This document shows positions 34,793-64,000 of a stretch of 64,000 nucleotides of DNA, one piece after another. Below the pieces are notes generated by a model. It ran no database searches. It saw nothing but the letters and a program-made list of their open reading frames with translations, and was not told the DNA's origin. The stretch lies in sequence record MK327936.1; one strand, given 5' to 3'. This DNA comes from Escherichia phage vB_EcoM_G2540. Both the position numbers and the translations under genes were made by a program. Positions within the stretch are counted from its first letter, which is position 1, and each line of letters starts with the position of its first letter.

Positions 34793-34797
34793 TATCA

Positions 34798-35391
34798 TTA
34801 TTTCAGAGAATTAATGTATTCCTGAACATCGGCAGAGGTAGTTTCAACCCCAGAAATATTGCCATTAAAGGTTTCAACTCGAGCAAGAGTATCTTCAATA
34901 TCAACCTTAGTCAGTGCTGCAATTTCAACTACATCATCAGCAGTACTAATTCCGAGGGCATTCGCAGCACGAGTTTCACGGATATATTCCAATTTAACTG
35001 CAAGTTCTTGGCGAGCATCATCTAACTCAACTACTTTCTTGGCGATTTCAATTCGCATTTCAGCATAACCATCAGCTTTAGTAGTCAACTGCTCAGCTGT
35101 TCGACGATATAGTAAACCAAGTTTAGCATGCATTGTTACATCTTGACCTTCGGAAAGAAGCTTGCGAATTTCGCGCTCTTTTGATTCGGCTTGTCGATTC
35201 TTTTCGACAATAAGTTCACGAATACGTTTTTCTTCATTAATAGATTTAACGGAAGCAGTTTTTAGGTCTTTAATCTTATCAAGTAGTTTTGCTGCCGCAG
35301 CGGTATACTGCTCTTCAACAGATAGATTTTTAGCCATAGCAGAACCAAGTTTAGTGCGAATAAACTCAACAATTTTCTTCAGTGTGTTCAT
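34798..35391 (-). CDS. Coiled-coil protein
   Basis: 197 aa, predominantly helical/charged heptad-like sequence. Confidence 0.4.
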
Positions 35392-35434
35392 AGTATTTCC
35401 TTAGGTTAATTAAGATTTAAAATCCACGAGAGTA

Positions 35435-35611
35435 TTATACTCCGGATAGTTTGTAAACTATTTCAACATCGCCTTTTGCTGCTTTATAACCTTCAGCCCA
35501 AGATACAACCGAGTTTTTATCTGAAGATTCAAATTCTGGCATTGGGCTTTCGCCAATGTTCACGCAGTATGTTTCTTCATTTTCGTCAAACCAAATAATT
35601 AAAGTAGTCAT
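35435..35611 (-). CDS. Small ORF below the ORF-track cutoff
   Basis: My translation gives MTTLIIWFDENEETYCVNIGESPMPEF..., 58 aa, ATG at 35611. Confidence 0.3.
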   Translation of the reverse strand: MTTLIIWFDENEETYCVNIGESPMPEFESSDKNSVVSWAEGYKAAKGDVEIVYKLSGV

Positions 35612-35680
35612 TTATTTCTCCGTTTTCTGTATTTGTTTTGATAAGTCTATAATAACACCGTCCTTGGTATTTGTACACAA

Positions 35681-35956
35681 TTATTTCATATTATTGAAAT
35701 ATTCTTCTGCGATTTCATCGTTATCATGGTAAACTTTAGAAGACAGTTTAACATAACCTTCAGCAGTGAACATGTTAATCACAACCTTTACAGTATACCA
35801 CTGACCGTCTTCATTACCCATTACTGCATAAGTTTCAAACATCGGATGGTCAGGACCGATAACTTTAATATCATTCACTGTACGACCAAAATCTTCTGAA
35901 ACACATTTCATAAAGAAGTTGAACAGTTCGCCGTAATTATCCATTTCATTCTCCAA
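35681..35956 (-). CDS. Hypothetical small protein
   Basis: 91-aa ORF directly after early promoter 35988..36017. Confidence 0.4.
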   Translation of the reverse strand: MENEMDNYGELFNFFMKCVSEDFGRTVNDIKVIGPDHPMFETYAVMGNEDGQWYTVKVVINMFTAEGYVKLSSKVYHDNDEIAEEYFNNMK

Positions 35957-35987
35957 GTTGTTTTCTGTATCAGTAGTTGATAGTTGT

Positions 35988-36017
35988 ATAGTACCATGGA
36001 AGAACAGGGATGTAAAC
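35988..36017 (-). promoter_or_regulatory. T4-type early promoter
   Basis: TTTTTTCACAAAACTGTTTACA-17-TACTAT-ACAACTATCAACTAC. Confidence 0.6.
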
Positions 36018-36150
36018 AGTTTTGTGAAAAAATTTTAAAAAGTTTTGGGGAATTCTAGGGCAGGGAGGGGCAATTAAAGGATAGGATAATATATTATAAA
36101 GGGTAGAAACTAAATGATGCCTAGAGAGGCCCGGAAAGGCCTAGATACCA

Positions 36151-36180
36151 AAAAGCCCCAACCTTTCGGTCGGGGCTAAG
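36151..36180 (-). terminator. Rho-independent terminator (copy 1 of identical 30-bp element)
   Basis: Minus strand AGCCCCGACC-GAAA-GGTTGGGGCT followed by TTTT; downstream of internal-protein gene. Confidence 0.7.
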
Positions 36181-36184
36181 AATG

Positions 36185-36658
36185 TTATTTGATTTGTTTA
36201 GCAGACCAAATGCGGTCTTTAATAATTTTTTGAATGTCTTCAACATACTCTAGGTCATGAGCATGTGGATTATCTTTGAAACTATGAGCTCGCGCAAGTT
36301 TCTGGCCTTCGGTCTTAATTATCAAAAGTTCTTTAAGAATTGCTTCATACCTGGAGATAATTCCTTTAGCAATATTTTTTTCTTGTGCTGCTTTAGTGTC
36401 AGCCTTAGGAGCAGGTTTACCTGAAGCCTTTGCAAAAGCAGCTCCAGTAGCAACTAAACTTTTCCAAGCCATACTAACTGCATTCCCTGTAAATCCTTCG
36501 GCTTTCATATCACGAGCAAATTGGAATCGTGATTCATCGGAAGCATCTTTATAGGAATATTTACCCGCGGCAATGGCAGCTTTTGCGACAGCTTGAATTT
36601 CGGTGCTAGATGCTTCATTTAACACCGCTTCATTTAAAAATTGAGCATATGATTTCAT
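36185..36658 (-). CDS. Internal-protein-like protein with capsid-targeting N-terminus
   Basis: 157 aa; starts MKSYAQFLNE like T4 IP targeting peptides; Ala/Lys-rich; late promoter TATAAATA upstream; flanked by identical terminators. Confidence 0.55.
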   Translation of the reverse strand: MKSYAQFLNEAVLNEASSTEIQAVAKAAIAAGKYSYKDASDESRFQFARDMKAEGFTGNAVSMAWKSLVATGAAFAKASGKPAPKADTKAAQEKNIAKGIISRYEAILKELLIIKTEGQKLARAHSFKDNPHAHDLEYVEDIQKIIKDRIWSAKQIK

Positions 36659-36694
36659 CTTATTTCCTGTTTTAATTCGTGGTTTTAATATACT

Positions 36695-36702
36695 TATTTA
36701 TA
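36695..36702 (-). promoter_or_regulatory. Late promoter (TATAAATA) for internal-protein gene
   Basis: Reverse complement of tatttata about 30 nt upstream of ATG 36658. Confidence 0.5.
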
Positions 36703-36705
36703 CTA

Positions 36706-36735
36706 AAAAGCCCCAACCTTTCGGTCGGGGCTAAG
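36706..36735 (-). terminator. Rho-independent terminator (copy 2) ending the tRNA operon
   Basis: 30 bp identical to 36151..36180; hairpin plus T-run on minus strand. Confidence 0.7.
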
Positions 36736-36784
36736 CCTTGCGGCAACCTTGTTGGGGTTCCACCTGCTAAGGCAAGTGTTTGTA

Positions 36785-36940
36785 CGAAACGCCGGGATTC
36801 GAACCCGGTTATTAAGTAGTTGACGCTACTCAATATTTTTAAAAGGCCATATCTCGACCATATCCGAACGTTCCGTCAAAAACGCTACTCGGCTTACGGC
36901 AAAGATATTTCCTCGAATCGATAATTCGGTGCGCCGTTTC
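36785..36940 (-). ncRNA. Putative stable tRNA-like RNA (T4 species-1/2-type)
   Basis: T-arm-like CCGGG-TTCGAAT-CCCGG and a 6-bp terminal pairing but no complete cloverleaf; within the tRNA operon before the terminator. Confidence 0.3.
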
Positions 36941-36944
36941 TGCT

Positions 36945-37043
36945 GTGATAGTAAAGAATCAGAACACAGTAAAACTGTGGGAGAAACTATACTCCAGGGA
37001 ACATCAGTCCGACGACTTACCGGTAGCGACCCGGTTTCTTGTC
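36945..37043 (-). ncRNA. Putative second stable RNA between tRNA-Arg and the tRNA-like RNA
   Basis: Non-coding interval inside tRNA operon; T4 encodes two stable RNAs here; boundaries approximate. Confidence 0.25.
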
Positions 37044-37119
37044 TGGTCGAGGCAGTAGGGATCGAACCTACGACCCAGGACTTAGAAGGTCCTTGCTCTT
37101 CCTTCTGAGCTATGCCCCG
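37044..37119 (-). tRNA. tRNA-Arg (anticodon TCT), CCA encoded
   Basis: Manual fold: acceptor CGGGGCA/TGCCTCG, D-arm GCTC..GAGC, anticodon loop CTTCTAA, T-arm GTAGG-TTCGATC-CCTAC. Confidence 0.75.
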
Positions 37120-37122
37120 TAA

Positions 37123-37788
37123 TTAAAATTTCATTTTTCGACCTTTAAACCATCCTTCTGGAATTGGGTCAGTTTTCTTAATAAGTTTAGAAACTTTTTC
37201 ATCTAATGAATGAATCCACATCATACCAAATTGGGAATTCTTTTCGCCTTGTTGGTGTTTATTTCTGGCGTGAGATTCTTTCATTTTATTAATAGTTTCA
37301 AGAGTATGGGTCTTACCCAAGAAAGATTTAGTATTTAAAAATTTCTCTCTATACTTAGGATTATCCCAAAGCTGTTTAAACCTTTCTGAACCCATTTTAC
37401 GATATTTTTCTTTAAGGTCTGGGTCGTTCTCAAATCTGGTTTTAAAAGCGGCAGCTCCTTTTAAGGAAGCTTCTTTCTTTTTATCCAAATATTCTTTAGT
37501 GTTTAAATGGTCCCAACCACCTTCACCACCTAATTTCAAATTATAAACATCAGGGCGCTTTAAAAACTCTTCAGTCACAATATTCTTTTCTGACTCAAAC
37601 ATAGAGGTTTTATCGTCAAAGAACTCTAATATTTCTTTAGAAAAATTTTCTATACCATACTTATCTTGGGCTCTTTTTAATAATTTACCAGAACCCATAT
37701 ATCCATCATCTAAATTTTCGGTAGAATGCACACCAATATAAATTTTATTATTAATTTTATTTGTTATTTTATAAGTGTAATGGAACAT
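37123..37788 (-). CDS. segB: GIY-YIG homing endonuclease SegB
   Basis: 221 aa; YTYKITNKINNKIYIGVHS GIY-YIG motif; embedded in tRNA cluster as in T4. Confidence 0.8.
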   Translation of the reverse strand: MFHYTYKITNKINNKIYIGVHSTENLDDGYMGSGKLLKRAQDKYGIENFSKEILEFFDDKTSMFESEKNIVTEEFLKRPDVYNLKLGGEGGWDHLNTKEYLDKKKEASLKGAAAFKTRFENDPDLKEKYRKMGSERFKQLWDNPKYREKFLNTKSFLGKTHTLETINKMKESHARNKHQQGEKNSQFGMMWIHSLDEKVSKLIKKTDPIPEGWFKGRKMKF

Positions 37789-37829
37789 AAATATCTCCTA
37801 TTTCTAAGAGTATTTATGTTCCCAAAATA

Positions 37830-37901
37830 TGGCCCTGGGTGGAATTGAACCACCATCTGGCGATTATGAGTCGCTTGCTTGAACCTTCCAGCTACAGGGC
37901 C
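37830..37901 (-). tRNA. tRNA with CAT anticodon (T4 tRNA-Ile-type; Ile via lysidine, or Met)
   Basis: Manual fold: acceptor GGCCCTG/CAGGGCC, anticodon loop CTCATAA, T-arm GGTGG-TTCAATT-CCACC. Confidence 0.75.
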
Positions 37902-37907
37902 TTGATA

Positions 37908-37980
37908 TGCTGATTGACGGAATCGAACCGCCGACATCCTCATTACAAGTGAGTTGCTCTACCTACTGAGCTAAATCAGC
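37908..37980 (-). tRNA. tRNA-Thr (TGT)
   Basis: Manual fold: acceptor GCTGATT/AATCAGC, D-arm GCTC-AGTAGGTA-GAGC, anticodon loop CTTGTAA, T-arm GGCGG-TTCGATT-CCGTC. Confidence 0.8.
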
Positions 37981-37987
37981 GAAATTA

Positions 37988-38074
37988 CGGAGGCGATAGG
38001 ATTTGAACCTATGAGTCGCCGGAGCGACTGCCGGTTTTCAAGACCGGTGCATTAAACCACTCTGCCACGCCTCC
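37988..38074 (-). tRNA. tRNA-Ser (TGA), long variable arm
   Basis: Manual fold: acceptor GGAGGCG/CGCCTCC, anticodon loop CTTGAAA, long variable arm, T-arm ATAGG-TTCAAAT-CCTAT. Confidence 0.8.
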
Positions 38075-43735: not shown

Positions 43736-44326
43736 ATGCTCTTTACATTTTTTGATCCGATTGAATATGCGGCCAAAACGGTGAATAAAAACGCGCCGAC
43801 TATTCCTATGACAGATATTTTTAGAAACTATAAAGACTATTTTAAACGCGCTCTTGCGGGATACCGCTTACGTACTTATTATATTAAAGGTTCACCACGC
43901 CCGGAAGAATTAGCAAATGCTATATATGGAAATCCGCAGTTGTATTGGGTTTTATTGATGTGTAATGATAATTATGATCCGTATTATGGATGGATTACTT
44001 CGCAAGAAGCTGCTTATCAAGCATCTATACAAAAATACAAAAATGTAGGTGGAGACCAAATAGTATATCACGTGAATGAGAACGGTGAAAAATTTTATAA
44101 TTTAATATCATACGATGATAATCCATATGTTTGGTATGATAAAGGCGATAAAGCTAGAAAATATCCTCAATATGAAGGAGCGCTTGCTGCGGTCGATACG
44201 TATGAAGCGGCTGTTCTTGAAAATGAAAAACTTCGTCAAATAAAAATAATAGCAAAATCAGACATCAATTCATTTATGAACGACCTTATACGTATAATGG
44301 AGAAATCTTATGGAAATGATAAGTAA
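43736..44326 (+). CDS. 53: Baseplate wedge protein gp53
   Basis: 196 aa; late promoter TATAAATA at 43700; precedes gene 5. Confidence 0.85.
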   Translation: MLFTFFDPIEYAAKTVNKNAPTIPMTDIFRNYKDYFKRALAGYRLRTYYIKGSPRPEELANAIYGNPQLYWVLLMCNDNYDPYYGWITSQEAAYQASIQKYKNVGGDQIVYHVNENGEKFYNLISYDDNPYVWYDKGDKARKYPQYEGALAAVDTYEAAVLENEKLRQIKIIAKSDINSFMNDLIRIMEKSYGNDK

Positions 44327-46037
44327 TAACCTTAATTGGTTTGTTGGTGTTGTTGAAGATAGAATGGACCCATTAAAATTAGGTCGTGTTCGTGTTCGTG
44401 TGGTTGGTCTGCATCCACCTCAAAGAGCACAAGGTGATGTAATGGGTATTCCAACTGAAAAATTACCATGGATGTCAGTTATTCAACCTATAACTTCTGC
44501 AGCAATGTCAGGAATTGGAGGTTCTGTTACTGGACCGGTAGAAGGAACTAGAGTTTATGGTCATTTTTTAGACAAATGGAAAACTAACGGAATTGTCCTT
44601 GGCACGTATGGTGGAATAGTTCGCGAAAAACCGAATAGACTTGAAGGATTTTCTGACCCAACTGGGCAATATCCTAGACGTTTAGGAAATGATACTAACG
44701 TATTAAACCAAGGCGGAGAAGTAGGATATGATTCGTCTTCTAATATTATCCAAGATAGTAATCTAGACACTGCAATAAATCCCGATGATAGACCACTATC
44801 AGAAATTCCAACTGATGATAATCCAAATATGTCAATGGCTGAAATGCTTCGCCGTGATGAAGGATTAAGACTAAAAGTTTATTGGGATACCGAAGGATAT
44901 CCGACAATTGGTATTGGTCATCTTATCATGAAGCAGCCAGTTCGTGATATGGCTCAAATTAATAAAGTTTTATCAAAACAAGTTGGTCGTGAAATTACAG
45001 GAAATCCAGGTTCTATTACAATGGAAGAAGCGACAGCTTTATTTGAGCGTGATTTGGCTGATATGCAACGTGACATTAAATCACATTCTAAAGTAGGACC
45101 AGTCTGGCAAGCTGTCAACCGTTCTCGTCAAATGGCATTAGAAAATATGGCATTTCAAATGGGTGTTGGCGGTGTAGCTAAATTTAACACTATGTTAACT
45201 GCTATGTTAGCAGGAGATTGGGAAAAAGCATATAAAGCCGGTCGTGATTCATTGTGGTATCAACAAACAAAAGGCCGTGCATCCCGTGTTACTATGATTA
45301 TTCTTACGGGGAATTTGGAATCATATGGTGTTGAAGTGAAAACCCCAGCTAGGTCTCTATCAGCAATGGCTGCTACTGTAGCTAAATCTTCTGACCCTGC
45401 TGACCCTCCTATTCCAAATGACTCGAGAATTTTATTCAAAGAACCAGTTTCTTCATATAAAGGTGAATATCCATATGTTCACACAATGGAAACTGAAAGC
45501 GGACATATTCAGGAATTTGATGATACCCCTGGGCAAGAACGATACAGATTAGTTCATCCAACTGGAACTTACGAAGAAGTATCACCGTCAGGAAGAAGAA
45601 CAAGAAAAACTGTTGATAATTTGTATGATATAACCAACGCTGATGGTAATTTTTTGGTAGCCGGTGATAAAAAGACTAACGTCGGTGGATCAGAAATTTA
45701 TTACAACATGGATAATCGTCTTCACCAGATAGATGGAAGCAATACAATATTTGTGCGTGGCGATGAAACTAAGACAGTTGAAGGTAATGGAACTATCTTA
45801 GTCAAAGGTAATGTTACTATTGTAGTTGAAGGTAATGCTGACATTACAGTTAAAGGAGATGCTACCAATTTAGTTGAAGGAAATCAAACTAACACAGTAA
45901 ATGGAAATCTTTCTTGGAAAGTTGCTGGGACAGTTGATTGGGACGTTGGTGGTGATTGGACAGAAAAAATGGCATCTATGAGTTCTATTTCATCTGGTCA
46001 ATACACAATTGATGGATCGAGGATTGACATTGGCTAA
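44310..46037 (+). CDS. 5: Baseplate hub/central spike with tail lysozyme domain gp5
   Basis: 575 aa; MEMISNNLNWFVGVVED N-terminus, lysozyme domain MLRRDEGLRLKVYWDTEGYPTIGIGHL, C-terminal VxGxxxxV beta-helix repeats. Confidence 0.95.
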   Translation: MEMISNNLNWFVGVVEDRMDPLKLGRVRVRVVGLHPPQRAQGDVMGIPTEKLPWMSVIQPITSAAMSGIGGSVTGPVEGTRVYGHFLDKWKTNGIVLGTYGGIVREKPNRLEGFSDPTGQYPRRLGNDTNVLNQGGEVGYDSSSNIIQDSNLDTAINPDDRPLSEIPTDDNPNMSMAEMLRRDEGLRLKVYWDTEGYPTIGIGHLIMKQPVRDMAQINKVLSKQVGREITGNPGSITMEEATALFERDLADMQRDIKSHSKVGPVWQAVNRSRQMALENMAFQMGVGGVAKFNTMLTAMLAGDWEKAYKAGRDSLWYQQTKGRASRVTMIILTGNLESYGVEVKTPARSLSAMAATVAKSSDPADPPIPNDSRILFKEPVSSYKGEYPYVHTMETESGHIQEFDDTPGQERYRLVHPTGTYEEVSPSGRRTRKTVDNLYDITNADGNFLVAGDKKTNVGGSEIYYNMDNRLHQIDGSNTIFVRGDETKTVEGNGTILVKGNVTIVVEGNADITVKGDATNLVEGNQTNTVNGNLSWKVAGTVDWDVGGDWTEKMASMSSISSGQYTIDGSRIDIG

Positions 46038-46071
46038 TATACTTCCAATGAGCGCTGATTTAGGAGAATCC

Positions 46072-46566
46072 ATGGAAGGTTCTTCTATCGACGTCACCTT
46101 TACCGCTCAATTAGAAACAGGTGAAACGTTAGTATCTATAAATATAACTAGTTACGAAGAAACTCCTGGGGTTTTAGTAGAAGAAAATCGCTTATATGGA
46201 ACATATGAATCTGTATTTGGTTTCGGAAATGACGCGTTGAAATATCGTTTAGGCGATGAATTTAAAACTGCTGCTTCATGGGAAGAACTTCCTACTGATT
46301 CTGATACTCAGTTGTATTTGTGGAAAGCTCCTCAAAATCTCCAGAAGACATTCACTTACGAAGTAACATTAATATATGACTACCAAGAACAAAGTGAATC
46401 TGGAGGTTCTGGCAGTAATTCTAGGTCATCTTCTGATACTACTGAACCGACGGATCCTCCTGCTCCAGTAAGAAAAACTCTCGTTAAAAATTATACTAAA
46501 ACTATAGTTGGAAATTGGAGTCGTTGGGCTAATAAACTGAGAAGCTATGTATATGAGAGGCAATAA
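46072..46566 (+). CDS. 5.1: Hypothetical protein (gene 5.1 position), start trimmed to Met with AGGAG
   Basis: ORF track 46009..46566; AGGAGAATCC-ATG at 46072. Confidence 0.5.
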
Positions 46567-46860
46567 ATGTCAGGATTAAGTTATGATAAGTGTGTTACTG
46601 CTGGCCATGAAGCGTGGCCTCCAACAGTTGTGAATGCTACACAAAGTAAAGTATTCACTGGAGGAATTGCTGTTCTCGTAGCAGGCGATCCAATTACAGA
46701 ACATACAGAAATTAAAAAGCCGTATGAAACACATGGCGGAGTGACACAACCTAGAACTTCTAAGGTATATGTCACTGGAAAGAAAGCTGTTCAAATGGCT
46801 GATCCAATATCATGCGGTGATACTGTGGCTCAGGCATCATCTAAAGTATTCATTAAATAG
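46567..46860 (+). CDS. 5.4: PAAR-repeat spike-tip protein gp5.4
   Basis: 97 aa; [26 protein letters not shown]-like fold signature. Confidence 0.85.
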
Positions 46861-46868
46861 GATTTAAA

Positions 46869-48851
46869 ATGGCAAATACCCCTGTAAATTATCAATTAAC
46901 AAGAACAGCAAATGCTATTCCCGAGATATTCGTCGGGGGTACGTTTGCTGAAATAAAACAAAATCTCATTGAATGGCTTAATGGCCAAAATGAATTTTTG
47001 GATTATGATTTTGAAGGCTCAAGATTAAACGTTCTGTGCGACCTTTTGGCTTATAATACGCTGTACATTCAACAGTTTGGTAATGCTGCTGTGTATGAAA
47101 GCTTTATGCGTACTGCTAACTTACGAAGTTCAGTTGTTCAAGCTGCACAAGATAACGGATATTTACCTACTTCAAAATCCGCTGCGCAGACCGAAATTAT
47201 GTTAACATGCACTGACGCATTGAATAGGAATTACATTACAATTCCTCGCGGAACTCGCTTTTTAGCATATGCAAAAGATACTTCTGTTAATCCATATAAC
47301 TTCGTTTCTACCGAAGACGTTATTGCTATTCGTGATAAAAATAACCAATATTTTCCGCGTTTAAAATTGGCCCAGGGACGTATAGTAAGAACTGAAATCA
47401 TTTATGATAAATTAACACCTATTATCATTTATGATAAAAATATTGATAGAAACCAGGTTAAATTATATGTTGATGGAGCGGAATGGATTAACTGGACAAG
47501 AAAGTCAATGGTTCATGCTGGTTCAACATCAACGATTTACTATATGCGTGAAACTATTGATGGAAACACTGAATTCTATTTTGGTGAAGGTGAAATTTCT
47601 GTTAATGCTTCTGAAGGAGCTTTGACCGCTAATTATATCGGAGGTCTTAAACCTACTCAGAACTCTACGATTGTCATTGAGTACATCAGTACTAATGGCG
47701 CTGACGCAAACGGAGCAGTCGGATTTTCATACGCAGATACATTAACAAATATAACTGTCATCAATATTAATGAAAATCCAAACGATGACCCAGATTTTGT
47801 TGGGGCAAATGGTGGCGGTGATCCAGAAGATATTGAGCGTATTCGCGAATTGGGTACTATTAAACGCGAAACCCAGCAACGATGCGTAACTGCGACTGAC
47901 TACGATACATTCGTTTCAGAGAGATTCGGTTCTATTATTCAGGCAGTTCAAACTTTCACTGATTCTACTAAACCTGGGTATGCATTTATTGCTGCTAAAC
48001 CTAAATCAGGTCTGTATTTAACTACTGTACAACGTGAAGATATTAAAAATTATCTCAAAGACTATAATTTAGCTCCTATTACGCCATCAATTATTTCTCC
48101 TAATTATCTTTTTATTAAGACTAATTTAAAAGTCACATATGCTTTAAATAAACTGCAAGAATCCGAGCAGTGGCTTGAAGGTCAAATAATTGATAAAATT
48201 GATCGCTATTATACCGAAGATGTAGAAATTTTTAACTCGTCTTTCGCTAAATCTAAGATGTTAACTTATGTAGATGATGCAGATCATTCTGTCATTGGTT
48301 CATCAGCGACTATTCAAATGGTTCGTGAAGTACAAAACTTCTATAAAACACCTGAAGCAGGTATTAAATACAATAATCAAATAAAAGATCGTTCTATGGA
48401 ATCTAATACGTTTTCATTTAATTCTGGACGAAAGGTTGTAAATCCTGATACTGGTTTAGAAGAAGATGTATTATATGACGTTCGTATAGTATCAACAGAC
48501 CGAGATTCTAAAGGAATTGGTAAAGTTATTATTGGTCCATTTGCTTCTGGCGATGTTACAGAAAATGAAAACATTCAGCCATATACAGGCAATGATTTTA
48601 ATAAATTAGCAAATTCTGATGGACGCGACAAATACTATGTTATCGGTGAAATAAATTATCCGGCTGACATGATTTATTGGAATATCGCTAAAATTAATTT
48701 AACATCTGAAAAATTTGAGGTTCAGACTATTGAATTATATTCTGACCCAACCGATGATGTTATCTTTACTCGCGATGGTTCACTGATTGTATTTGAAAAT
48801 GACTTACGTCCACAATACTTAACTATCGATTTGGAGCCTATATCACAATGA
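46869..48851 (+). CDS. 6: Baseplate wedge protein gp6
   Basis: 660 aa, size and order match T4. Confidence 0.9.
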   Translation: MANTPVNYQLTRTANAIPEIFVGGTFAEIKQNLIEWLNGQNEFLDYDFEGSRLNVLCDLLAYNTLYIQQFGNAAVYESFMRTANLRSSVVQAAQDNGYLPTSKSAAQTEIMLTCTDALNRNYITIPRGTRFLAYAKDTSVNPYNFVSTEDVIAIRDKNNQYFPRLKLAQGRIVRTEIIYDKLTPIIIYDKNIDRNQVKLYVDGAEWINWTRKSMVHAGSTSTIYYMRETIDGNTEFYFGEGEISVNASEGALTANYIGGLKPTQNSTIVIEYISTNGADANGAVGFSYADTLTNITVININENPNDDPDFVGANGGGDPEDIERIRELGTIKRETQQRCVTATDYDTFVSERFGSIIQAVQTFTDSTKPGYAFIAAKPKSGLYLTTVQREDIKNYLKDYNLAPITPSIISPNYLFIKTNLKVTYALNKLQESEQWLEGQIIDKIDRYYTEDVEIFNSSFAKSKMLTYVDDADHSVIGSSATIQMVREVQNFYKTPEAGIKYNNQIKDRSMESNTFSFNSGRKVVNPDTGLEEDVLYDVRIVSTDRDSKGIGKVIIGPFASGDVTENENIQPYTGNDFNKLANSDGRDKYYVIGEINYPADMIYWNIAKINLTSEKFEVQTIELYSDPTDDVIFTRDGSLIVFENDLRPQYLTIDLEPISQ

Positions 48852-51800
48852 CAGTAAAAGCACCTTCAGTCACTAGTCTCAGAATTTCCAAGTTATCCGC
48901 AAATCAGGTGCAAGTACGCTGGGATGACGTTGGTGCTAATTTCTACTATTTTGTAGAAATCGCTGAGACAAAAACAGACTCGGGGGAAAATCTCCCGAGT
49001 AATCAATACCGATGGATTAATTTAGGATATACAGCAAATAATAGTTTCTTTTTTGATGATGCTGATCCACTAACATCATACATCATTAGAGTAGCTACGG
49101 CGGCGCAAGATTTTGAGCAATCTGATTGGGTTTATACAGAAGAGTTTGAAACTTTTGCTACGAATGCTTATACATTTCAAAACATGATTGAAATGCAATT
49201 AGCCAATAAATTCATTCAGGAAAAATTTACTCTTAATAATTCTGATTATGTTAATTTTAATAATGATACTATAATGGCTGCATTGATGAATGAATCGTTC
49301 CAATTCAGCCCATCATATGTTGATGTTTCATCAATCAGTAATTTTATTATTGGTGAAAATGAATATCATGAAATACAAGGTTCCATTCAGCAAGTATGTA
49401 AGGATATTAACCGAGTTTATTTGATGGAATCAGAAGGGATTCTATATCTTTTTGAGCGCTATCAACCCGTAGTTAAAGTATCTAATGATAAAGGACAAAC
49501 CTGGAAAGCTGTAAAGCTCTTCAATGACCGTGTAGGATATCCTTTATCTAAGACAGTATATTACCAATCTGCAAACACGACATACGTTCTAGGATACGAC
49601 AAGATTTTCTACGGCCGCAAATCTACTGATGTTAGATGGTCAGCTGATGATGTCAGATTTAGTTCACAGGATATAACATTTGCTAAACTTGGTGACCAAT
49701 TGCATCTAGGATTTGATGTAGAAATTTTTGCCACTTATGCGACTTTACCAGCTAATGTATACCGCATTGCAGAAGCTATTACTTGCACCGATGATTACAT
49801 TTACGTTGTCGCCAGAGACAAAGTTAGATACATAAAAACGAGTAATGCACCTATAGATTCTGATCCATTATCTCCGACATATTCGGAAAGACTTTTTGAA
49901 CCTGATACAATGACTATAACTGGAAATCCTAAAGCAGTATGCTATAAAATGGATTCTATCGGTGATAAAGTTTTTGCTCTTATTATTGGAGAAGTTGAAA
50001 CATTAAATGCCAATCCGAGAACATCAAAAATAATTGATTCTGTTGATAAAGGAATATATGTTTTAAATCATGATGAAAAAACATGGAAAAGAGTTTTCGG
50101 TAATACCGAAGAAGAAAGAAGACGTATTCAACCCGGATATGCGAATATGTCAACTGACGGTAAATTAGTTTCTCTGTCTTCGAGTAATTTTAAATTTTTA
50201 AGTGATAATGTTGTTAATGACCCTGAAACTGCAGCAAAATATCAGTTAATTGGCGCTGTTAAATATGAATTTCCTCGTGAATGGTTAGCTGATAAGCATT
50301 ATCATATGATGGCATTTATAGCGGATGAAACATCTGATTGGGAGACTTTTACTCCTCAACCAATGAAATACTACGCAGAACCGTTCTTTAACTGGTCTAA
50401 AAAATCTAACACACGTTGTTGGATAAACAACTCTGATAGAGCTGTAGTAGTTTATGCTGATTTAAAATACACTAAAGTTATAGAAAATATTCCGGAAACA
50501 TCACCAGATAGATTAGTTCATGAATACTGGGATGATGGTGATTGCACTATAGTAATGCCAAATGTTAAATTCACTGGATTTAAAAAATATGCGTCTGGGA
50601 TGCTTTTCTATAAAGCCTCCGGTGAAATAATTTCTTACTATGATTTTAACTATCGTGTGAGAGATACAGTAGAAATTATTTGGAAGCCAACTGAAGTATT
50701 TTTAAAAGCATTTTTACAAAACCAAGAGCACGAGACTCCTTGGTCACCAGAAGAAGAGCGTGGATTAGCTGACCCCGATTTAAGACCATTAATTGGCACA
50801 ATGATGCCTGATTCTTATTTGTTACAGGATTCGAATTTTGAAGCATTTTGCGAAGCATATATTCAATATCTTTCTGACGGATACGGAACTCAGTATAACA
50901 ATTTACGAAATTTAATTCGTAACCAATATCCACGAGAAGAGCATGCATGGGAATATTTGTGGTCAGAGATATATAAAAGAAACATTTATTTAAATGCTGA
51001 TAAACGTGATGCTGTTGCGAGATTCTTTGAATCGCGTAGCTATGATTTTTATTCTACTAAAGGAATTGAAGCATCATACAAGTTTCTTTTTAAAGTTCTT
51101 TATAATGAAGAAGTTGAAATTGAAATTGAATCTGGGGCTGGTACTGAATATGATATAATCGTTCAATCTGATTCTTTGACTGAAGATTTAGTAGGACAAA
51201 CGATTTATACGGCAACAGGAAGATGTAATGTTACTTATATAGAAAGAAGCTATTCTAATGGTAAATTGCAATGGACCGTAACTATTCATAATCTTTTGGG
51301 ACGATTAATTGCTGGTCAAGAAGTTAAAGCAGAAAGACTCCCTAGTTTTGAAGGCGAAATTATTCGTGGCGTTAAAGGAAAGGATTTGCTTCAAAACAAT
51401 ATAGACTATATTAATAGAAGTAGATCATACTATGTAATGAAAATTAAATCCAATTTACCTTCTTCCCGTTGGAAATCTGACGTTATTCGTTTTGTTCATC
51501 CAGTAGGATTTGGATTTATAGCAATTACCCTTTTAACGATGTTTATTAATGTTGGTTTAACTCTTAAACATACAGAGACTATAATTAATAAATACAAAAA
51601 CTATAAATGGGATTCTGGATTGCCTACTGAATATGCTGATAGAGTAGCTAAATTAACTCCAACCGGTGAAATTGAACATGATTCAGTAACAGGCGAAGCA
51701 ATTTATGAGCCTGGCCCAATGGCTGGTGTAGAATATCCTCTTCCTGATGACTATAATGCTGAAAATAATAATTCAATATTTCAAGGTCAATTGCCGTCTG

Positions 51801-51946
51801 AACGACGTAAATTAATGAGTCCTTTATTTGATGCATCTGGAACAACATTTGCGCAATTTAGAGATTTAGTTAATAAACGTCTAAAAGATAATATAGGAAA
51901 TCCAAGAGACCCTGAAAATCCAACACAGGTTAAAATAGATGAATGA
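48848..51946 (+). CDS. 7: Baseplate wedge initiator gp7
   Basis: 1032 aa, size and order match T4. Confidence 0.9.
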   Translation: MTVKAPSVTSLRISKLSANQVQVRWDDVGANFYYFVEIAETKTDSGENLPSNQYRWINLGYTANNSFFFDDADPLTSYIIRVATAAQDFEQSDWVYTEEFETFATNAYTFQNMIEMQLANKFIQEKFTLNNSDYVNFNNDTIMAALMNESFQFSPSYVDVSSISNFIIGENEYHEIQGSIQQVCKDINRVYLMESEGILYLFERYQPVVKVSNDKGQTWKAVKLFNDRVGYPLSKTVYYQSANTTYVLGYDKIFYGRKSTDVRWSADDVRFSSQDITFAKLGDQLHLGFDVEIFATYATLPANVYRIAEAITCTDDYIYVVARDKVRYIKTSNAPIDSDPLSPTYSERLFEPDTMTITGNPKAVCYKMDSIGDKVFALIIGEVETLNANPRTSKIIDSVDKGIYVLNHDEKTWKRVFGNTEEERRRIQPGYANMSTDGKLVSLSSSNFKFLSDNVVNDPETAAKYQLIGAVKYEFPREWLADKHYHMMAFIADETSDWETFTPQPMKYYAEPFFNWSKKSNTRCWINNSDRAVVVYADLKYTKVIENIPETSPDRLVHEYWDDGDCTIVMPNVKFTGFKKYASGMLFYKASGEIISYYDFNYRVRDTVEIIWKPTEVFLKAFLQNQEHETPWSPEEERGLADPDLRPLIGTMMPDSYLLQDSNFEAFCEAYIQYLSDGYGTQYNNLRNLIRNQYPREEHAWEYLWSEIYKRNIYLNADKRDAVARFFESRSYDFYSTKGIEASYKFLFKVLYNEEVEIEIESGAGTEYDIIVQSDSLTEDLVGQTIYTATGRCNVTYIERSYSNGKLQWTVTIHNLLGRLIAGQEVKAERLPSFEGEIIRGVKGKDLLQNNIDYINRSRSYYVMKIKSNLPSSRWKSDVIRFVHPVGFGFIAITLLTMFINVGLTLKHTETIINKYKNYKWDSGLPTEYADRVAKLTPTGEIEHDSVTGEAIYEPGPMAGVEYPLPDDYNAENNNSIFQGQLPSERRKLMSPLFDASGTTFAQFRDLVNKRLKDNIGNPRDPENPTQVKIDE

Positions 51947-52943
51947 TTCAAGTGTTATCTATCGTGCGATAGTTACTTCAAAATTTAGAACAGAAAAAAT
52001 GTTGAATTTTTATAATTCAATTGGAAGTGGTCCGGATAAAAACACTATCTTTATCACATTTGGAAGATCAGAACCGTGGTCATCAAATGAAAATGAGGTG
52101 GGCTTTGCCCCACCTTATCCAACCGATTCTGTATTAGGCGTAACTGACATGTGGACGCATATGATGGGAACAGTAAAAGTTCTTCCATCAATGCTTGATG
52201 CAGTTATTCCTCGTCGAGATTGGGGAGATACTAGATATCCGGATCCGTATACATTTAGAATTAACGATATTGTAGTGTGTAACTCAGCTCCTTACAATGC
52301 TACTGAATCAGGCGCAGGCTGGTTAGTATATCGTTGTTTAGATGTTCCTGATACTGGAATGTGTTCAATAACATCTTTAACTGATAAGGATGAATGCCTC
52401 AAATTAGGTGGAAAATGGACACCTTCTGTTAGGTCAATGACTCCTCCTGAAGGCCGAGGAGATGCTGAAGGAACAATTGAACCTGGAGACGGATATGTTT
52501 GGGAATATCTATTTGAGATTCCGCCTGATGTATCTATAAATAGATGCACAAATGAATATATCGTGGTTCCTTGGCCTGAGGAATTAAAAGAAGACCCGAC
52601 TAGATGGGGGTATGAAGATAATCTCACTTGGCAGCAAGATGATTTTGGATTGATTTACCGAGTTAAGGCAAATACTATCCGTTTTAAAGCATATTTAGAT
52701 TCAGTTTATTTTCCTGAAGCTGCATTGCCAGGAAATAAAGGATTTAGACAAATATCAATAATCACGAATCCTCTTGAAGCTAAAGTTCATCCAAATGACC
52801 CAAACGTTAAAGCTGAAAAGGATTATTATGACCCAGAAGATTTAATGAGGCATTCGGGCGAAATGATTTATATGGAAAATAGGCCACCTATTATTATGGC
52901 AATGGATCAAACAGAAGAAATCAATATTCTGTTTACATTTTAA
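51939..52943 (+). CDS. 8: Baseplate wedge protein gp8
   Basis: 334 aa, size and order match T4. Confidence 0.9.
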   Translation: MNDSSVIYRAIVTSKFRTEKMLNFYNSIGSGPDKNTIFITFGRSEPWSSNENEVGFAPPYPTDSVLGVTDMWTHMMGTVKVLPSMLDAVIPRRDWGDTRYPDPYTFRINDIVVCNSAPYNATESGAGWLVYRCLDVPDTGMCSITSLTDKDECLKLGGKWTPSVRSMTPPEGRGDAEGTIEPGDGYVWEYLFEIPPDVSINRCTNEYIVVPWPEELKEDPTRWGYEDNLTWQQDDFGLIYRVKANTIRFKAYLDSVYFPEAALPGNKGFRQISIITNPLEAKVHPNDPNVKAEKDYYDPEDLMRHSGEMIYMENRPPIIMAMDQTEEINILFTF

Positions 52944-52948
52944 ATTAA

Positions 52949-52972
52949 GGGAGCCCATGGGCTCCCTTTTTC
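52949..52972 (+). terminator. Rho-independent terminator after gene 8
   Basis: Perfect palindrome GGGAGCCCATGGGCTCCC followed by TTTTTC. Confidence 0.75.
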
Positions 52973-52974
52973 TT

Positions 52975-52982
52975 TATAAATA
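52975..52982 (+). promoter_or_regulatory. Late promoter (TATAAATA) for gene 9
   Basis: Exact TATAAATA 25 nt before ATG 53007. Confidence 0.6.
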
Positions 52983-53006
52983 TTATAAACTCATAAGGAA
53001 ACCGCT

Positions 53007-53873
53007 ATGTTCATTCAAGAACCAAAGAAATTGATTGATACCGGCGAAATTGGTAACGCTTCTACTGGTGATATCTTATTCGACGGTGGTAATAAAATTA
53101 ATAGTGATTTTAACGCAATTTATAATGCGTTTGGCGATCAGCGTAAAATGGCAGTAGCAAATGGCACTGGAGCTGATGGTCAAATTATCCATGCTACTGG
53201 ATATTATCAAAAACACTCTATTGCTGAGTATGCAACTCCAGTAAAAGTTGGCACTAGACATGATATTGATACCTCTACTGTAGGTGTTAAAGTTATCATT
53301 GAAAGAGGAGAACTTGGCGATTGTGTTGAATTCATTAACTCTAATGGATCAATATCAGTTACTAATCCTTTAACGATTCAGGCTATTGATTCAATTAAAG
53401 GTGTTTCAGGTAATTTGGTAGTAACTACTCCATATAGTAAAGTTACTTTACGCTGTATTTCATCTGATAATTCTACATCGGTTTGGAATTATTCTATTGA
53501 AAGCATGTTTGGTCAAAAGGAATCACCGGTTGAAGGTACGTGGAATATTTCTACATCTGGATCAGTTGACATTCCATTGTTTCATCGCACTGAATATAAC
53601 ATGGCTAAATTGTTAGTTACATGCCAGTCAGCAGATGGAAGAAAAATTAAAACAGCAGAAATAAATATTCTTGTGGATATTGTTAATTCAGAGGTCATTT
53701 CTTCTGAATATGCTGTCATGCGAGTTGGGAATGAAACCGAAGAAGACGAAATCGCTAATATTGCATTTAGTATTAAAGAAAATTATGTAACGGCGACTAT
53801 AAGTTCTTCAACTGTCGGTATGAGAGCAGCAGTTAAAGTTATCGCTACGCAGAAAATCGGGGTGGCTCAATAA
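53007..53873 (+). CDS. 9: Baseplate wedge / long tail fibre socket gp9
   Basis: 288 aa; late promoter TATAAATA at 52975. Confidence 0.9.
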   Translation: MFIQEPKKLIDTGEIGNASTGDILFDGGNKINSDFNAIYNAFGDQRKMAVANGTGADGQIIHATGYYQKHSIAEYATPVKVGTRHDIDTSTVGVKVIIERGELGDCVEFINSNGSISVTNPLTIQAIDSIKGVSGNLVVTTPYSKVTLRCISSDNSTSVWNYSIESMFGQKESPVEGTWNISTSGSVDIPLFHRTEYNMAKLLVTCQSADGRKIKTAEINILVDIVNSEVISSEYAVMRVGNETEEDEIANIAFSIKENYVTATISSSTVGMRAAVKVIATQKIGVAQ

Positions 53874-55678
53874 TGAAACAAAATATTAATATCGGTAATG
53901 TTGTAGATGATGGTACCGGTGACTACCTGCGTAAAGGTGGTATAAAAATAAATGAAAACTTTGATGAGCTTTATTACGAGCTTGGTGACGGTGATGTTCC
54001 ATATTCAGCTGGTGCCTGGAAAACTTATAATGCTTCATCAGGACAAACATTAACAGCAGAATGGGGAAAATCATATGCCATTAACACTTCATCTGGAAGA
54101 GTAACCCTACAACTTCCTAAAGGAACCGTTAATGATTATAATAAAGTAATTAAAGCTAGGGATGTATTTGCAACATGGAATGTTAATCCAGTTACTCTAG
54201 TAGCCGCTTCTGGTGATACTATTAAAGGATCATCGTCATCAGTTGAAATTAATGTTCAATTTAGCGATTTAGAATTAGTTTATTGTGCTCCAGGACGTTG
54301 GGAATATGTCAAAAACAAACAAATTGACAAAATTATTAGTTCAGATATTAGTAATGTAGCACGTAAAGAATTTTTAGTCGAAGTTCAAGGACAAACAGAC
54401 TTTTTAGATGTTTTCCGTGGAACTAGCTATAATGTTAATAACATCCGAGTAAAACACCGCGGTAATGAATTATATTATGGCGATGTATTTAGTGAAAACA
54501 GTGACTTTGGCTCTCCTGGGGAAAATGAAGGAGAATTGATTCCTCTTGATGGATTTAATATTAGGTTAAGACAGCCTTGTAATATTGGTGACACTGTTCA
54601 AATTGAAACATTTATGGATGGTGTATCACAATGGAGAAGTTCATATACAAGACGCCAAATAAAAGTATTAGATTCAAAATTAACGTCAAAAACTTCTTTA
54701 GAAGGAAGTATTTACGTTACTGATTTATCAACAATGAAATCAATTCCATTCTCTGCATTTGGATTAATTCCTGGAGAACCTATTAATCCTAATTCTCTTG
54801 AAGTTCGTTTTAATGGAATTTTACAACAACAAGCTGGAACAGCCGGATATCCTCTGTTTTTGTGTGAAGGTGCTAATTCAGATACGCAAGCAGGATGTAT
54901 ATCTCTTGGTGGTGAATGGAAAGAATCGAATACAGATTATTCTATAGAATATGAAGATGGAAAACCTGTCAGTCTTTTATTTGATAGAAAATTTGAATCT
55001 GGCGATATAATCGTTATAACATGGTTCAATAATGATTTAGGAACTCTTTTAGAAAAAGATGACATTATTGAATTAACTGATGACCGTTATGTTAGTAAAG
55101 GATCATCTACTGAAGTTACTGGTGATGTAGCCTTAACAGATTTTGATAAAATCGGTTGGCCAAATGTTGAAAAAGTTGATTCTTATACTAGAACGTATAA
55201 TTCAATATCATCTATTTTCGACAGCATTTATCCTGTTGGTTCAATTTATGAAAATGCTATAAATCCAAATAATCCAGTGACTTATATGGGATTTGGTTCA
55301 TGGAAATTATTTGGTAAAGGGCAGGTTTTAGTAGGATGGAATGATGATGTTACAGATCCAAACTTTGCATTAAACAATAATGATTTAGATTCTAGCGGAA
55401 ATCCTTCACATACCGCCGGTGGAACAGTTGGTACAACATCAGTAACGCTTGAAAACGCAAATCTTCCTGCGACTAAAACTGATGAAAGAGTTTTAATTGA
55501 AGACGAAAATGGATCAGTTATTATTGGAGGATGTCAATATGACCCAGACGAAACTGGTCCTATATATACAAAATATCGTGAAGACTACGCAACAACAAAC
55601 TCTTCACATACTCCTCCTACTAATATTAGTAATATTCAACCGTCTATTACTGTATACCGTTGGATAAGGATTGCATAA
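53873..55678 (+). CDS. 10: Baseplate wedge / short tail fibre attachment gp10
   Basis: 601 aa; size and order match T4. Confidence 0.9.
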
Positions 55679-56392
55679 TGAGTTTACTTAATAATAAAGC
55701 GGGAGTTATTTCCCGCTTAGCAGATTTTCTTGGTTTTAGAACTAAGAAAAATGATATTTCGGTTATGAATAATCAGCCGGTAGGCGCTGTAACAATTTCA
55801 CAAATAGCAAAAGGTTTTTATGACCCAAATGTAGAATCTGCTATCAATGATGTTAGAAATATGGCAGAGCAACAGGTTGGAGCTGTATTAATTTGCTATC
55901 AATGATGTTAGAAATATGGCAGAGCAACAGGTTGGAGCTGTATTAATTAATATAAGCGGCGTATCTCCTACTGGAGTGCAACAAACAGACTATTGGTCAT
56001 TTGAAGGAACTGTTACTGATACTTCAGCCAAACCAGGTGACCCAGTTATTGTTAACATGTTTGGTATTCCAGTTAAAGCTACTAACGGAATGACTTCAAT
56101 TGAATTTACCAGTGCCGTTAGAATAGCTCTACAGGAAATGGTTGCAAAATTTATTGCAATTGATTCATTTGAAGACCATCCTACTATAGGGAATAAAATA
56201 CAAGTTAAGTATTTAGATAACCAAGAACATATCTTAGAGCAATACTCTGATAAAGGAATTACTTTCAAACAAGAAATAATTTCTCCTTCTAAACCTGGAT
56301 ATGGAACTTGGCAATTATTAGGTGCGCAAACTGTCACGTTAGATAGTCACACACAACCTACAGTATTTTATTATTTTGAGAGAATAGCATGA
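55678..56392 (+). pseudogene. 11: Baseplate gene 11 interrupted by a 55-bp tandem duplication (N-fragment 55678..55905, C-fragment ORF 55916..56392)
   Basis: [20 protein letters not shown] start overlapping gene 10 stop; frame breaks after the duplicated segment; removing one copy gives a continuous ORF of about 219 aa. Confidence 0.75.
55839..55948. repeat. Perfect direct tandem duplication, 2 x 55 bp
   Basis: 55839..55893 identical to 55894..55948 by direct comparison; flanking bases differ. Confidence 0.9.
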
Positions 56393-57939
56393 GTAATAAT
56401 ACATATCAGCACGTATCAAATGAATCAAAATATGTTAAATTCGATCCAGTGGGATCGAATTTTCCTGACACTGTTACGACGGTGCAGTCTGCATTATCAA
56501 AAATAAGTAATATCGGCGTAAATGGTATTCCTGATGCAACTATGGAAGTTAAAGGAATAGCAATGATTGCATCAGAGCAAGAGGTTTTAGATGGAACAAA
56601 TAATTCTAAAATCGTTACACCAGCTACATTAGCAACAAGATTATTGTATCCAAATGCTACTGAAACTAAATATGGTTTAACGCGCTATTCAACAAATGAA
56701 GAAATATTAGAAGGCTCAGATAATAATTCATCAATAACACCGCAAAAACTGAAATACCATACTGATGATGTGTTCCAAAATAGATATTCGTCTGAGTCAT
56801 CAAACGGGGTTATTAAAATATCATCTACGCCTGCAGCTTTGGCTGGTGTCGATGATACTACGGCGATGACTCCGCTGAAAACCCAAAAACTTGCAATAAA
56901 ATTAATTTCACAAATAGCTCCTTCAGAAGACACTGCAACAGAATCTGTGAGAGGAGTAGTTCAATTATCTACTGTTGCACAAACTCGTCAAGGAACTCTC
57001 CGCGAAGGATATGCAATTTCCCCGTATACCTTTATGAATTCTGTTGCAACACAAGAATATAAGGGTGTTATACGTCTAGGAACACAAGCAGAAATTAATA
57101 ATAATTTGGGGGATGTTGCAGTAACAGGTGAAACACTAAATGGTCGAGGAGCTACCGGTTCTATGCGTGGGGTAGTAAAATTAACGACGCAAGCTGGTAT
57201 TGCTCCTGAAGGTGATAGCTCTGGGGCATTAGCCTGGAACGCAGATGTAATTAATACTCGTGGTGGACAAACTATTAATGGTTCTTTAAATTTAGATCAT
57301 CTCACAGCAAATGGAATTTGGTCGCGCGGCGGAATGTGGAAAAATGGCGATCAACCTGTTGCCACTGAAAGATATGCGTCCGAAAGGGTTCCGGTTGGAA
57401 CTATTATGATGTTTGCGGGTGATTCAGCACCTCCAGGTTGGATTATGTGTCATGGTGGAACTGTGTCAGGAGATCAATATCCTGATTATAGAAACACAGT
57501 TGGAACAAGATTTGGTGGGGATTGGAATAATCCAGGGATTCCTGATATGCGAGGTCTTTTCGTCAGAGGAGCGGGCACAGGTGGTCATATTTTAAATCAA
57601 CGAGGACAAGATGGTTATGGGAAGGATAGACTTGGTGTAGGATGTGATGGAATGCATGTTGGTGGTGTTCAAGCGCAACAAATGTCATACCATAAACACG
57701 CTGGTGGTTGGGGAGAATATAACAGAAGTGAAGGTCCATTTGGCGCGTCTGTTTATCAAGGATATCTTGGAACTAGAAAATATGCCGACTGGGATAACGC
57801 TTCATACTTCACCAATGATGGATTTGAATTAGGTGGACCGAGAGATGCCCTTGGTACACTTAATCGTGAAGGATTAATTGGTTATGAAACTAGACCATGG
57901 AATATATCATTAAACTATATTATTAAAATTCATTACTAA
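56389..57939 (+). CDS. 12: Short tail fibre gp12
   Basis: 516 aa; order after gene 11. Confidence 0.9.
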
Positions 57940-57948
57940 GGATTACAA

Positions 57949-59406
57949 ATGATTGAATTAAAAGATTTACCTTTTGTTGATAGCGTTCCTGGCGAAGGTC
58001 AGGAACGTATTTCATGGATTAAAAATGGTGAAGAAATACTAGGAGCTAGTACTAAGTATGGAAACGATGGATCAATGAATAGACCAACTGTTTCCGTGTT
58101 TAAAAATGTCGAAGTTCTTGATGAAAATGTGGGAATTCTTAAAACTGCCGTTGAAACATCGCAGGAAGATATTAAAACAATTCAAGGCATTTTAGATGTA
58201 TCAGGAGATATAGAAGCACTATCGCAGATCAGCGTTAATAAAAATGATATATCAAATTTAAAGACACTCACAAATGAACACACTGATATATTAAATGGTA
58301 CAAATACCACAGTTGACCGCATTCTTTCTGATATAGGTCCATTTAATGAGCAAGCAAATTCAGTTTATAGAACGATTAGAAATGATTTGCTGTGGATTAA
58401 AAGGGAATTAGGGCAATATGCTGGGCAAGATATTAATGGTCTTCCTGTTGTAGGAAATAACAGCACGGGAATGAAGCACCGCATCATTAATAATACAGAT
58501 GCTATAACTTCCCAAGGAATACGTCTAAGTGATTTGGAAGAAAAATTTATTGAATCTGATGTAGGTTCGCTTACAATCGAAGTAGGAAATCTTAGACAGG
58601 AATTAGGACAAAGACCATCTTCATTTAGTGAAAGCATATATTCACGTGTGCATAATTTAGATCAAGCACAAATTGATCTAAATTCTGAAATTAAATTTAT
58701 AAAAACTTCTATTGGATATCCAGGAAATACTTCTATAATCACAGATGTCAATGTCAATAGTCAAGAAATTTCAGCTTTAAATGATGAACTAAATAAAAGC
58801 GGAGGTGTTAAACAACGATTAACTATTATCGAAACATCGATTGGTTCAGATGATATTCCTTCTAGTATTAAAGGTCGAATTAAAGATAATACTACTTCTA
58901 TTGAATCTTTAAATGGAATTGTAGGTGAAAACACCTCGTCTGGTTTAAGAGCCAATGTTTCATGGTTAAACCAAATTGTTGGAACTGATTCTAGCGGTGG
59001 ACAACCTTCTCCTCCTGGGTCTCTTTTAAATAGAATTTCAACAGTTGAAACTTCCGTTAATAGATTGAACAATGATGTTCAAAACTTACAAGTTGAAATT
59101 GGTAATAACAATTCCGGAATTAAAGGACAAGTTGTAGCATTAAATAAATTAGTAAATGGAACAAATCCAAATGGTTCAACTGTCGAAGAACGCGGATTGA
59201 CTAATTCAATAAAAGCTAATGAGACTAACATTGCTTCAATTAATCAAGAGATTCGTAGCATTAAAAGCGATGTATCTTCATTACAAAGGGATGTCCAGAC
59301 TTTACAGGAAGCCGGTTATATTCCTGAAGCTCCAAGAGATGGGCAAGCTTACGTTCGTAAAGACGGCGAATGGGTATTGCTTTCTACCTTTTTATCACCA
59401 GCATAA
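57949..59406 (+). CDS. wac: Fibritin (whisker antigen control)
   Basis: 485 aa; segmented coiled coil; C-terminal foldon [27 protein letters not shown]. Confidence 0.95.
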
Positions 59407-59409
59407 CAT

Positions 59410-59425
59410 GGGGCCGCAAGGCCCC
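59410..59425 (+). terminator. Hairpin after wac (GGGGCC-GCAA-GGCCCC)
   Basis: Perfect 6-bp GC stem with tetraloop; no immediate T-run. Confidence 0.4.
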
Positions 59426-59437
59426 AAAGGATTTTAA

Positions 59438-61140
<1,703 letters not shown>

Positions 61141-61181
61141 TAAATATTATAAACTAATTAAAGCCCAGATTAGGAGAAATC

Positions 61182-64000
<2,819 letters not shown>

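Follow-up and report, generated by a model that had tools for sequence, protein, structure and literature searches.

The record of Escherichia phage vB_EcoM_G2540 (MK327936.1) raises the question of whether this phage carries a broken gene for the baseplate protein gp11 or whether gene 11 is broken only in the written sequence. The stretch of the record analyzed here comprises 64,000 nucleotides (referred to as the window) and represents a Tequatrovirus (T4-like) segment, collinear with its closest relative, Escherichia phage FL08 (PP400785.1). An earlier note, made from the sequence alone, had described a perfect 55-bp tandem duplication that frameshifts gene 11 and had listed three possible origins, i.e., a sequencing or assembly artefact, a mutant allele, or a case in which the C-terminal part of the protein is made by re-initiation.

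Comparison of the window with itself and a TRF run over its whole length bore out the repeat, and every factual point of the earlier description proved accurate. Bases 55839-55893 and 55894-55948 are identical at 55 of 55 positions and directly abut each other, and TRF placed the array at 55835-55948, with a period of 55, 2.1 copies, and a score of 221. This array was the sole tandem repeat with a period above 24 nt that TRF found in the window, and the second-longest exact direct repeat in the 64 kb measures 31 bp. The number of perfect 55-bp tandem repeats expected by chance in 64 kb of the same composition is approximately 6e-27. The junction reads GTATTAATT on the side of copy 1 and TGCTATCAATG on the side of copy 2. 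The period-55 match extends by 0 bp on either side of the two units, i.e., the boundaries of the duplication display no microhomology in the form of a short direct repeat extending the array, which is a weak test, since approximately 53% of arbitrary boundaries would have none. An origin of the repeat templated by a hairpin or quasipalindrome was considered and rejected, as the DNA and RNA folds were no better than those of shuffled sequences.

Because 55 equals 3 x 18 + 1, the gene 11 frame shifts after the first copy (Table 1). Specifically, the frame opened by ATG 55678 terminates with the residues GAVLICYQ at TGA 55903-55905, and ATG 55916, an internal methionine codon that lies inside copy 2 and is exposed by the duplication, opens a second frame that ends at 56392, both as previously described. 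As written, the locus is divided into two ORFs of 75 and 158 aa, which lie in different frames (+1 shift), in place of one gene of approximately 219 aa. Deletion of one copy yields a single ORF of 660 nt encoding 219 aa, the size of T4 gp11 that had been anticipated for it. This restored ORF aligns without gaps to T4 gp11 (PDB 1EL6), residues 1-219 to residues 1-219, with an E value of 1.4e-98, and matches the Pfam family PF08677 (GP11) with 254.9 bits over protein residues 1-219 and the full profile (positions 1-252). That the second copy is an insertion relative to related phages also proved correct, in that the alignment to T4 gp11 is gapless without copy 2 and the relatives have a single copy.

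Table 1. Features of the gene 11 region and of the e.4/e.5 region, in window coordinates
Feature	Position	Strand	Remarks
Copy 1 of the 55-bp unit (TGCTATCAATGATGTTAGAAATATGGCAGAGCAACAGGTTGGAGCTGTATTAATT)	55839..55893	+	Gene 11 nt 162-216; the copy that relatives have
Copy 2, identical to copy 1	55894..55948	+	Insertion in comparison with T4 gp11 and every relative
Truncated gene 11 N-terminal ORF, 75 aa	55678..55905	+	gp11 residues 1-72 plus CYQ; Pfam GP11 profile 1-84
Downstream ORF, 158 aa	55916..56392	+	gp11 residues 61-219; Pfam GP11 profile 78-252
Gene 10, 601 aa, intact	53873..55678	+	One-base overlap with gene 11 start
Gene 12, short tail fibre, 516 aa, intact	56389..57939	+	ATGA overlap with gene 11 stop
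e.5-like ORF, 201 aa	34151-34756		
e.4-like ORF, 130 aa	33790-34182		

The remainder of the window was compared with FL08, to which it is 99.4% identical over the structural block and 92-97% identical over the early-gene region. Between positions 40,270 and 64,000 (23.7 kb), the 55-bp unit is the sole indel, in agreement with the earlier statement that the other baseplate genes are intact, and downstream of the unit 3 mismatches occur in 8.1 kb. Among the 78 ORFs (100 aa or longer) common to the window and FL08, four were flagged as short, and gene 11 alone is truly broken. With gene 11 as its sole lesion, the window sequence shows no general pattern of errors or decay. Direct observations comprise the repeat with its exact length, the fact that it is unique to this sequence, and the intact state of the rest of the window.

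Further candidates for a broken gene were dismissed on inspection. A terminase ORF is merely cut by the end of the window, and another ORF flagged as short is an artefact of stop-to-stop ORF calling. An apparent frameshift at window position ~34205 corresponds to a two-ORF e.4/e.5 layout that represents a common allele, found in RB3, RB14, and many others; the window reads TTTTT at 34205-34209 where FL08 reads TTTT. Here, FL08 with its single fused e.4/e.5 ORF of 322 aa (PP400785.1 60119-61087) is the odd one out, and this fusion may be either a homopolymer error or real.

Some features of the window are reported in their own right. The similarity to FL08 displays an abrupt mosaic boundary at ~46,000, with ~8-16 mismatches per 500 bp upstream (92-97% identity) and only ~7 mismatches in the 18 kb from 46,000 to 64,000, a sequence pattern which suggests that the baseplate-neck block was recently exchanged by recombination. 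The exact gp5 encoded by the window (44310-46037) is on record nowhere, and the index accordingly contains no second, independent assembly of this phage. In the phage collection, the best match to window positions 30,000-38,000 is 94.8% identical, and a 197-aa protein from a divergent region, present in 418 blocks, was too unspecific to lead to a twin, the loci obtained being about 95% identical to the window. The C-terminal part of gene 5 (the same ORF) features a 24-nt tandem array at 45776-45884, with 4.5 copies and 68% matches; this is an ordinary feature, in keeping with the beta-helix needle of gp5 and its repeats of 8 residues. Dispersed exact direct repeats are located in the early/tRNA part of the window, one of 31 bp (36150-36180 and 36705-36735) and two of 23 and 22 bp (21291/35973 and 10253/39916, respectively); these could represent promoter or regulatory motifs that occur more than once, or sequence associated with homing endonucleases.

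The second copy was then sought in other sequences. Gene 11 matched 488 phage records, of which 320 fully cover the site. The best 60 of these 320 all span 660 nt, and a 271-nt query across the repeat aligned over a span of 216 nt in every full-length match sampled along the ranking. As judged from these alignments, all 320 covering records appear to hold a single copy; none of the phage records was 99% or more identical to the 271-nt query. A 29-mer across the junction had no match in IMG/VR contigs, in JGI metagenome contigs, or in 100,044 prokaryote species represented by one genome each, and neither of the two truncated gene 11 products had an exact match in an index of 153 billion genes. 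Conversely, gp10 or gp12 in exactly the form of the window is encoded in 15 distinct public contexts (Logan read assemblies, MEGAHIT metagenome assemblies, and NCBI genomes), and in each of the 15 the neighbouring gene 11 is intact, with 219 aa.

One of these 15 contexts is ENA ERZ920786 k127_6987 (ERR1305902), a MEGAHIT contig of 165,514 bp from a human gut metagenome that represents a near-complete T4-like genome. Once one copy is deleted from the window, the two sequences agree at 9,806 of 9,806 positions; the shared stretch corresponds to window positions 49,873-59,733 and comprises baseplate genes. Over window positions ~52,334-61,939, the contig displays one mismatch. The 9.8-kb identity means that zero substitutions separate the duplicated from the unduplicated background. 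The exact restored gene 11 was also present in four further contigs. Overall, within the collections searched, the 55-bp duplication is private to the window sequence. As a separate observation, on the contig ENA ERZ27287477 k141_40467 (196,677 bp) T4-like early genes run directly into bacterial-looking genes, i.e., those for a DEAD/ResIII helicase, a methyltransferase, a FAD-binding flavoprotein, and an ECF sigma factor; this contig is ~30 kb longer than a T4-like genome and is possibly a chimeric assembly.

The exact length of 55 bp and the perfect identity of the two copies favour a k-length overlap as the origin of the repeat, and there is a strong probability that the second copy is an assembly artefact, namely, an untrimmed overlap of contig ends at k = 55. 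T4-like genomes are circularly permuted. A short-read de Bruijn assembly of such a genome would close into a cycle, which the assembler would output as a linear contig whose first k bases equal its last k bases, and with SPAdes or metaSPAdes ending at k = 55 this overlap would be exactly 55 bp. If the contig had by chance been broken inside gene 11 and had then been circularised and re-opened at a conventional start without trimming, or if its end had been joined to its start at a later stage, the two 55-bp ends would have become adjacent, at a join presumed to lie between 55893 and 55894. The joined ends would form a perfect internal tandem duplication, and gene 11 would be frameshifted in the written sequence alone. 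Most likely, the phage itself encodes an ordinary gp11 of 219 aa.

Overlaps of this kind are well documented. In the CheckV survey of 751,567 contigs with terminal repeats, the repeat lengths peak at 55, 77, and 99 bp, i.e., at assembler k-mer lengths, and such k-length terminal repeats are what remains after a circular template has been opened at an arbitrary point (PMC8116208). For the T4-like phage 132, Roush et al. obtained a contig with SPAdes 3.12 whose ends overlapped by 55 bp, which was read as indicating a circular genome; one end was trimmed by hand, and the contig was then reopened to match T4 (PMC8483715). SPAdes overlaps of 127 bp have likewise been reported (PMC5923482), and according to the Unicycler paper, the end overlaps left by SPAdes on circular replicons need repair. 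The repeat length of 55 is one of the common final k values (55, 77, 99, and 127). If k, rather than slipped mispairing, had fixed the boundaries, zero microhomology would be expected, although this is a weak point. The assembler, the k value, and the rotation or untrimmed join are what we infer for this particular sequence, and the length of 55 could be a coincidence. No leftover terminal overlaps were found in four close relatives (FL08, vB_Eco-B1.1, VEc74, and Pu-Krd-SF5), so that the deposited genomes of this clade lend the artefact no support by way of a base rate.

A different in silico error, such as a join of overlapping contigs, a slip in polishing or scaffolding, or a file edit, would be unrelated to the k value of SPAdes. 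It would account equally well for a repeat that is private, perfect, and isolated; it offers no reason, however, for a length of exactly 55, which is the most typical value for a k-length overlap, and we regard it as quite unlikely. Duplications of another origin, whether real or artefactual, do occur in deposited T4-like genomes, as exemplified by a second case at the same locus, the length of which is not a k value. Shigella phage vB_SsoM_JK08 (LR877332.1 ~86,896-88,129) contains a perfect tandem duplication of 617 bp, with 0-bp microhomology, that starts at nt 147 of gene 11, ends at nt 107 of gene 12, and leaves both genes intact. It generates an additional chimeric ORF, gp12N::gp11C, of 206 aa, which combines gp12 residues 1-36 with gp11 residues ~50-219 and is annotated as a third "baseplate wedge subunit and tail pin". 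The JK08 duplication may be either real or an artefact. A scan of ~399 kb of related DNA for perfect tandem duplications with periods between 20 and 700 bp yielded those of the window and of JK08 and no others. Taking the k = 55 overlap and other in silico errors together, the probability that the 55-bp duplication is not a real biological feature is very high.

The alternative that the sequenced DNA truly contained the duplication, as a null allele of gene 11, has to be weighed against what is known of gp11. Gene 11 amber mutants are conditional lethals. The protein is a trimeric wedge component present in 18 copies per tail; it forms the interface to which the short tail fibre binds, its finger domains clamp gp10, and gp11 complementation assays depend on gene 11 amber mutants (PMC3004832). 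A null allele could have arisen late in stock propagation, could have been complemented in a mixed population, or could belong to a defective genome. Since gp11 is required, being stoichiometric in the baseplate and with its ambers conditionally lethal, such an allele should not become the consensus in a plaque-purified stock. Spontaneous tandem duplications are a known class of frameshift mutations in T4, e.g., in rII and the e gene, which lends the null allele some plausibility; they usually arise between short direct repeats, whereas the junction in the window lacks microhomology. Moreover, a 55-bp direct repeat would probably be lost quickly through the active homologous recombination of T4.

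JK08 also bears on this alternative. The left edge of its duplication, at gene 11 nt 147, is located 15 nt from that in the window, at nt 162, a proximity that might point to a hotspot of breakpoints at this place. JK08 was, however, found by hunting for gp11 homologues of odd length, so that the proximity has a chance of coincidence of ~30/660, or roughly 5%, and the evidence for a shared breakpoint hotspot at gene 11 nt ~147-162 is too weak for a claim. Against a real null allele also stand the 0 substitutions relative to the independent single-copy assembly over 9.8 kb and the match to k = 55, which would have to be a coincidence. The structural role of gp11 and the identical 9.8-kb single-copy assembly together make a mutant allele in a plaque-forming stock hard to reconcile with the data, and we consider this alternative unlikely.

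A real duplication might nevertheless be tolerated if gp11 were functional as two noncovalent pieces, comprising residues 1-72 and 61-219, with the second piece produced by termination-reinitiation. The geometry is favourable in that a gap of only 10 nt separates TGA 55903-55905 from ATG 55916. Upstream of ATG 55916, however, there is no Shine-Dalgarno (SD) sequence: its best duplex with the 3' end of the 16S rRNA has +0.2 kcal/mol, compared with a median of -5.8 kcal/mol across the other 14 long late genes on the plus strand of the window, and is weaker than that of 70% of 549 internal ATGs. The lack of an SD sequence weakens the idea of re-initiation, and SD-independent re-initiation 10 nt past the stop is the only possible route left for this codon.

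The consequences of such a split were assessed with an AlphaFold2 monomer model of a gp11 homologue with 98% identity, which has low confidence for residues 1-54 and is confident from about residue 60 onwards. It features a helix at residues 52-63 and a first strand at residues 70-73, and it places the break (residues 72/73) within the first strand, where the N-terminal part gives way to the globular body. As residues 61-72 are contained in both fragments, each would retain complete structural elements, and complementation by the two fragments is conceivable on the basis of the model. Such an arrangement would, in turn, deprive the gp10-clamping finger domains of their covalent connection to the N-terminal part. 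It also has no counterpart in nature as far as searched: gp11 homologues in full context all measure 217-223 aa, no naturally split gp11 was found among the homologues or phage records, the short matches being located on contigs of 1.4-2.4 kb, and the layout is not conserved in relatives. A gp11 working in two pieces is consequently judged very unlikely. Of the three origins listed in the earlier note, the artefact has gained from the exact agreement with k = 55, whereas the mutant allele and, owing to the missing SD sequence, re-initiation have lost ground.

Finally, ribosomes might read through a real duplication, either by a +1 frameshift or by a bypass, resulting in a wild-type gp11 or one that is longer by 18 aa. 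To connect the two frames, a +1 shift would have to occur within positions 55892-55903 (ATT TGC TAT CAA TGA), and this segment contains no slippery site, no codon that re-pairs well in +1, and no upstream SD sequence. T4 itself provides a precedent for a bypass, that of 50 nt in the translation of gene 60. Each of the 18 codons of copy 1 has an identical counterpart, in the appropriate frame, 55 nt further downstream, for example, GGA 55879 and GGA 55934, a pair reminiscent of gene 60; matched codons at this distance are, however, a trivial consequence of any tandem duplication. The presumed take-off codon is not followed by a stop, GGA 55879 preceding GCT, no significant take-off hairpin is predicted (z = -0.76 for the local RNA fold relative to shuffled sequences), and the peptide upstream of the putative bypass is ordinary gp11 sequence. 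The lesion affects a structural protein present in 18 copies per tail and lies in a context devoid of an SD sequence, a slippery site, or special RNA structure. Recoding is thus extremely improbable, and the broader proposition that a viable phage carries the duplication and obtains its gp11 from two fragments or from ribosomes that hop or shift has only a very small probability. If it were true, it would represent natural fragment complementation or recoding in a baseplate protein of a T4-type phage.

Under the preferred explanation by an untrimmed k = 55 overlap, the locus carries little biological weight and is a matter of data quality and of correcting the record. An untrimmed k-length overlap that is rotated inward mimics a frameshift in a required structural gene, with the consequence that two bogus "baseplate wedge subunit" ORFs appear and that the genome length is inflated by 55 bp. 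Joins of this type can mislead comparative analyses or safety analyses of therapeutic phages. As a screening rule, a perfect adjacent repeat of exactly 55, 77, 99, or 127 bp that is absent from close relatives should be presumed to be an assembly join until reads disagree.

Several known systems can be set beside the locus. Like gene 11 of T4, the restored ORF encodes 219 aa and is located between genes 10 and 12; unlike in T4, the ORF as written in the window is split into 75 and 158 aa by a +1 shift. The tandem-duplication mutants in rII and the e gene of T4 resemble the window in having a direct repeat with a length that is not a multiple of three and that inactivates a gene; the window differs in its 0-bp microhomology, in that the gene affected is a structural one needed by a viable stock, and in that the length equals an assembler parameter. 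With the bypass in T4 gene 60, the locus shares the T4-type phage background, a non-coding gap of ~50 nt, and matched codons on both sides, but it lacks a stop beside the matched GGA, a take-off hairpin, and a nascent-peptide signal. The duplication in JK08 corresponds to that of the window in its locus, its perfect identity, and the absence of microhomology, whereas its length of 617 bp is not a standard k and its intact genes 11 and 12 are compatible with viability, unlike the situation in the window. In the k-mer terminal overlaps of assembled contigs, the copies are situated at the ends of the record, whereas here they are adjacent and internal, which would require an additional join; the likeness comprises the length of exactly 55, the perfect identity, a break that is arbitrary with respect to genes, and the circularly permuted T4-like genome.
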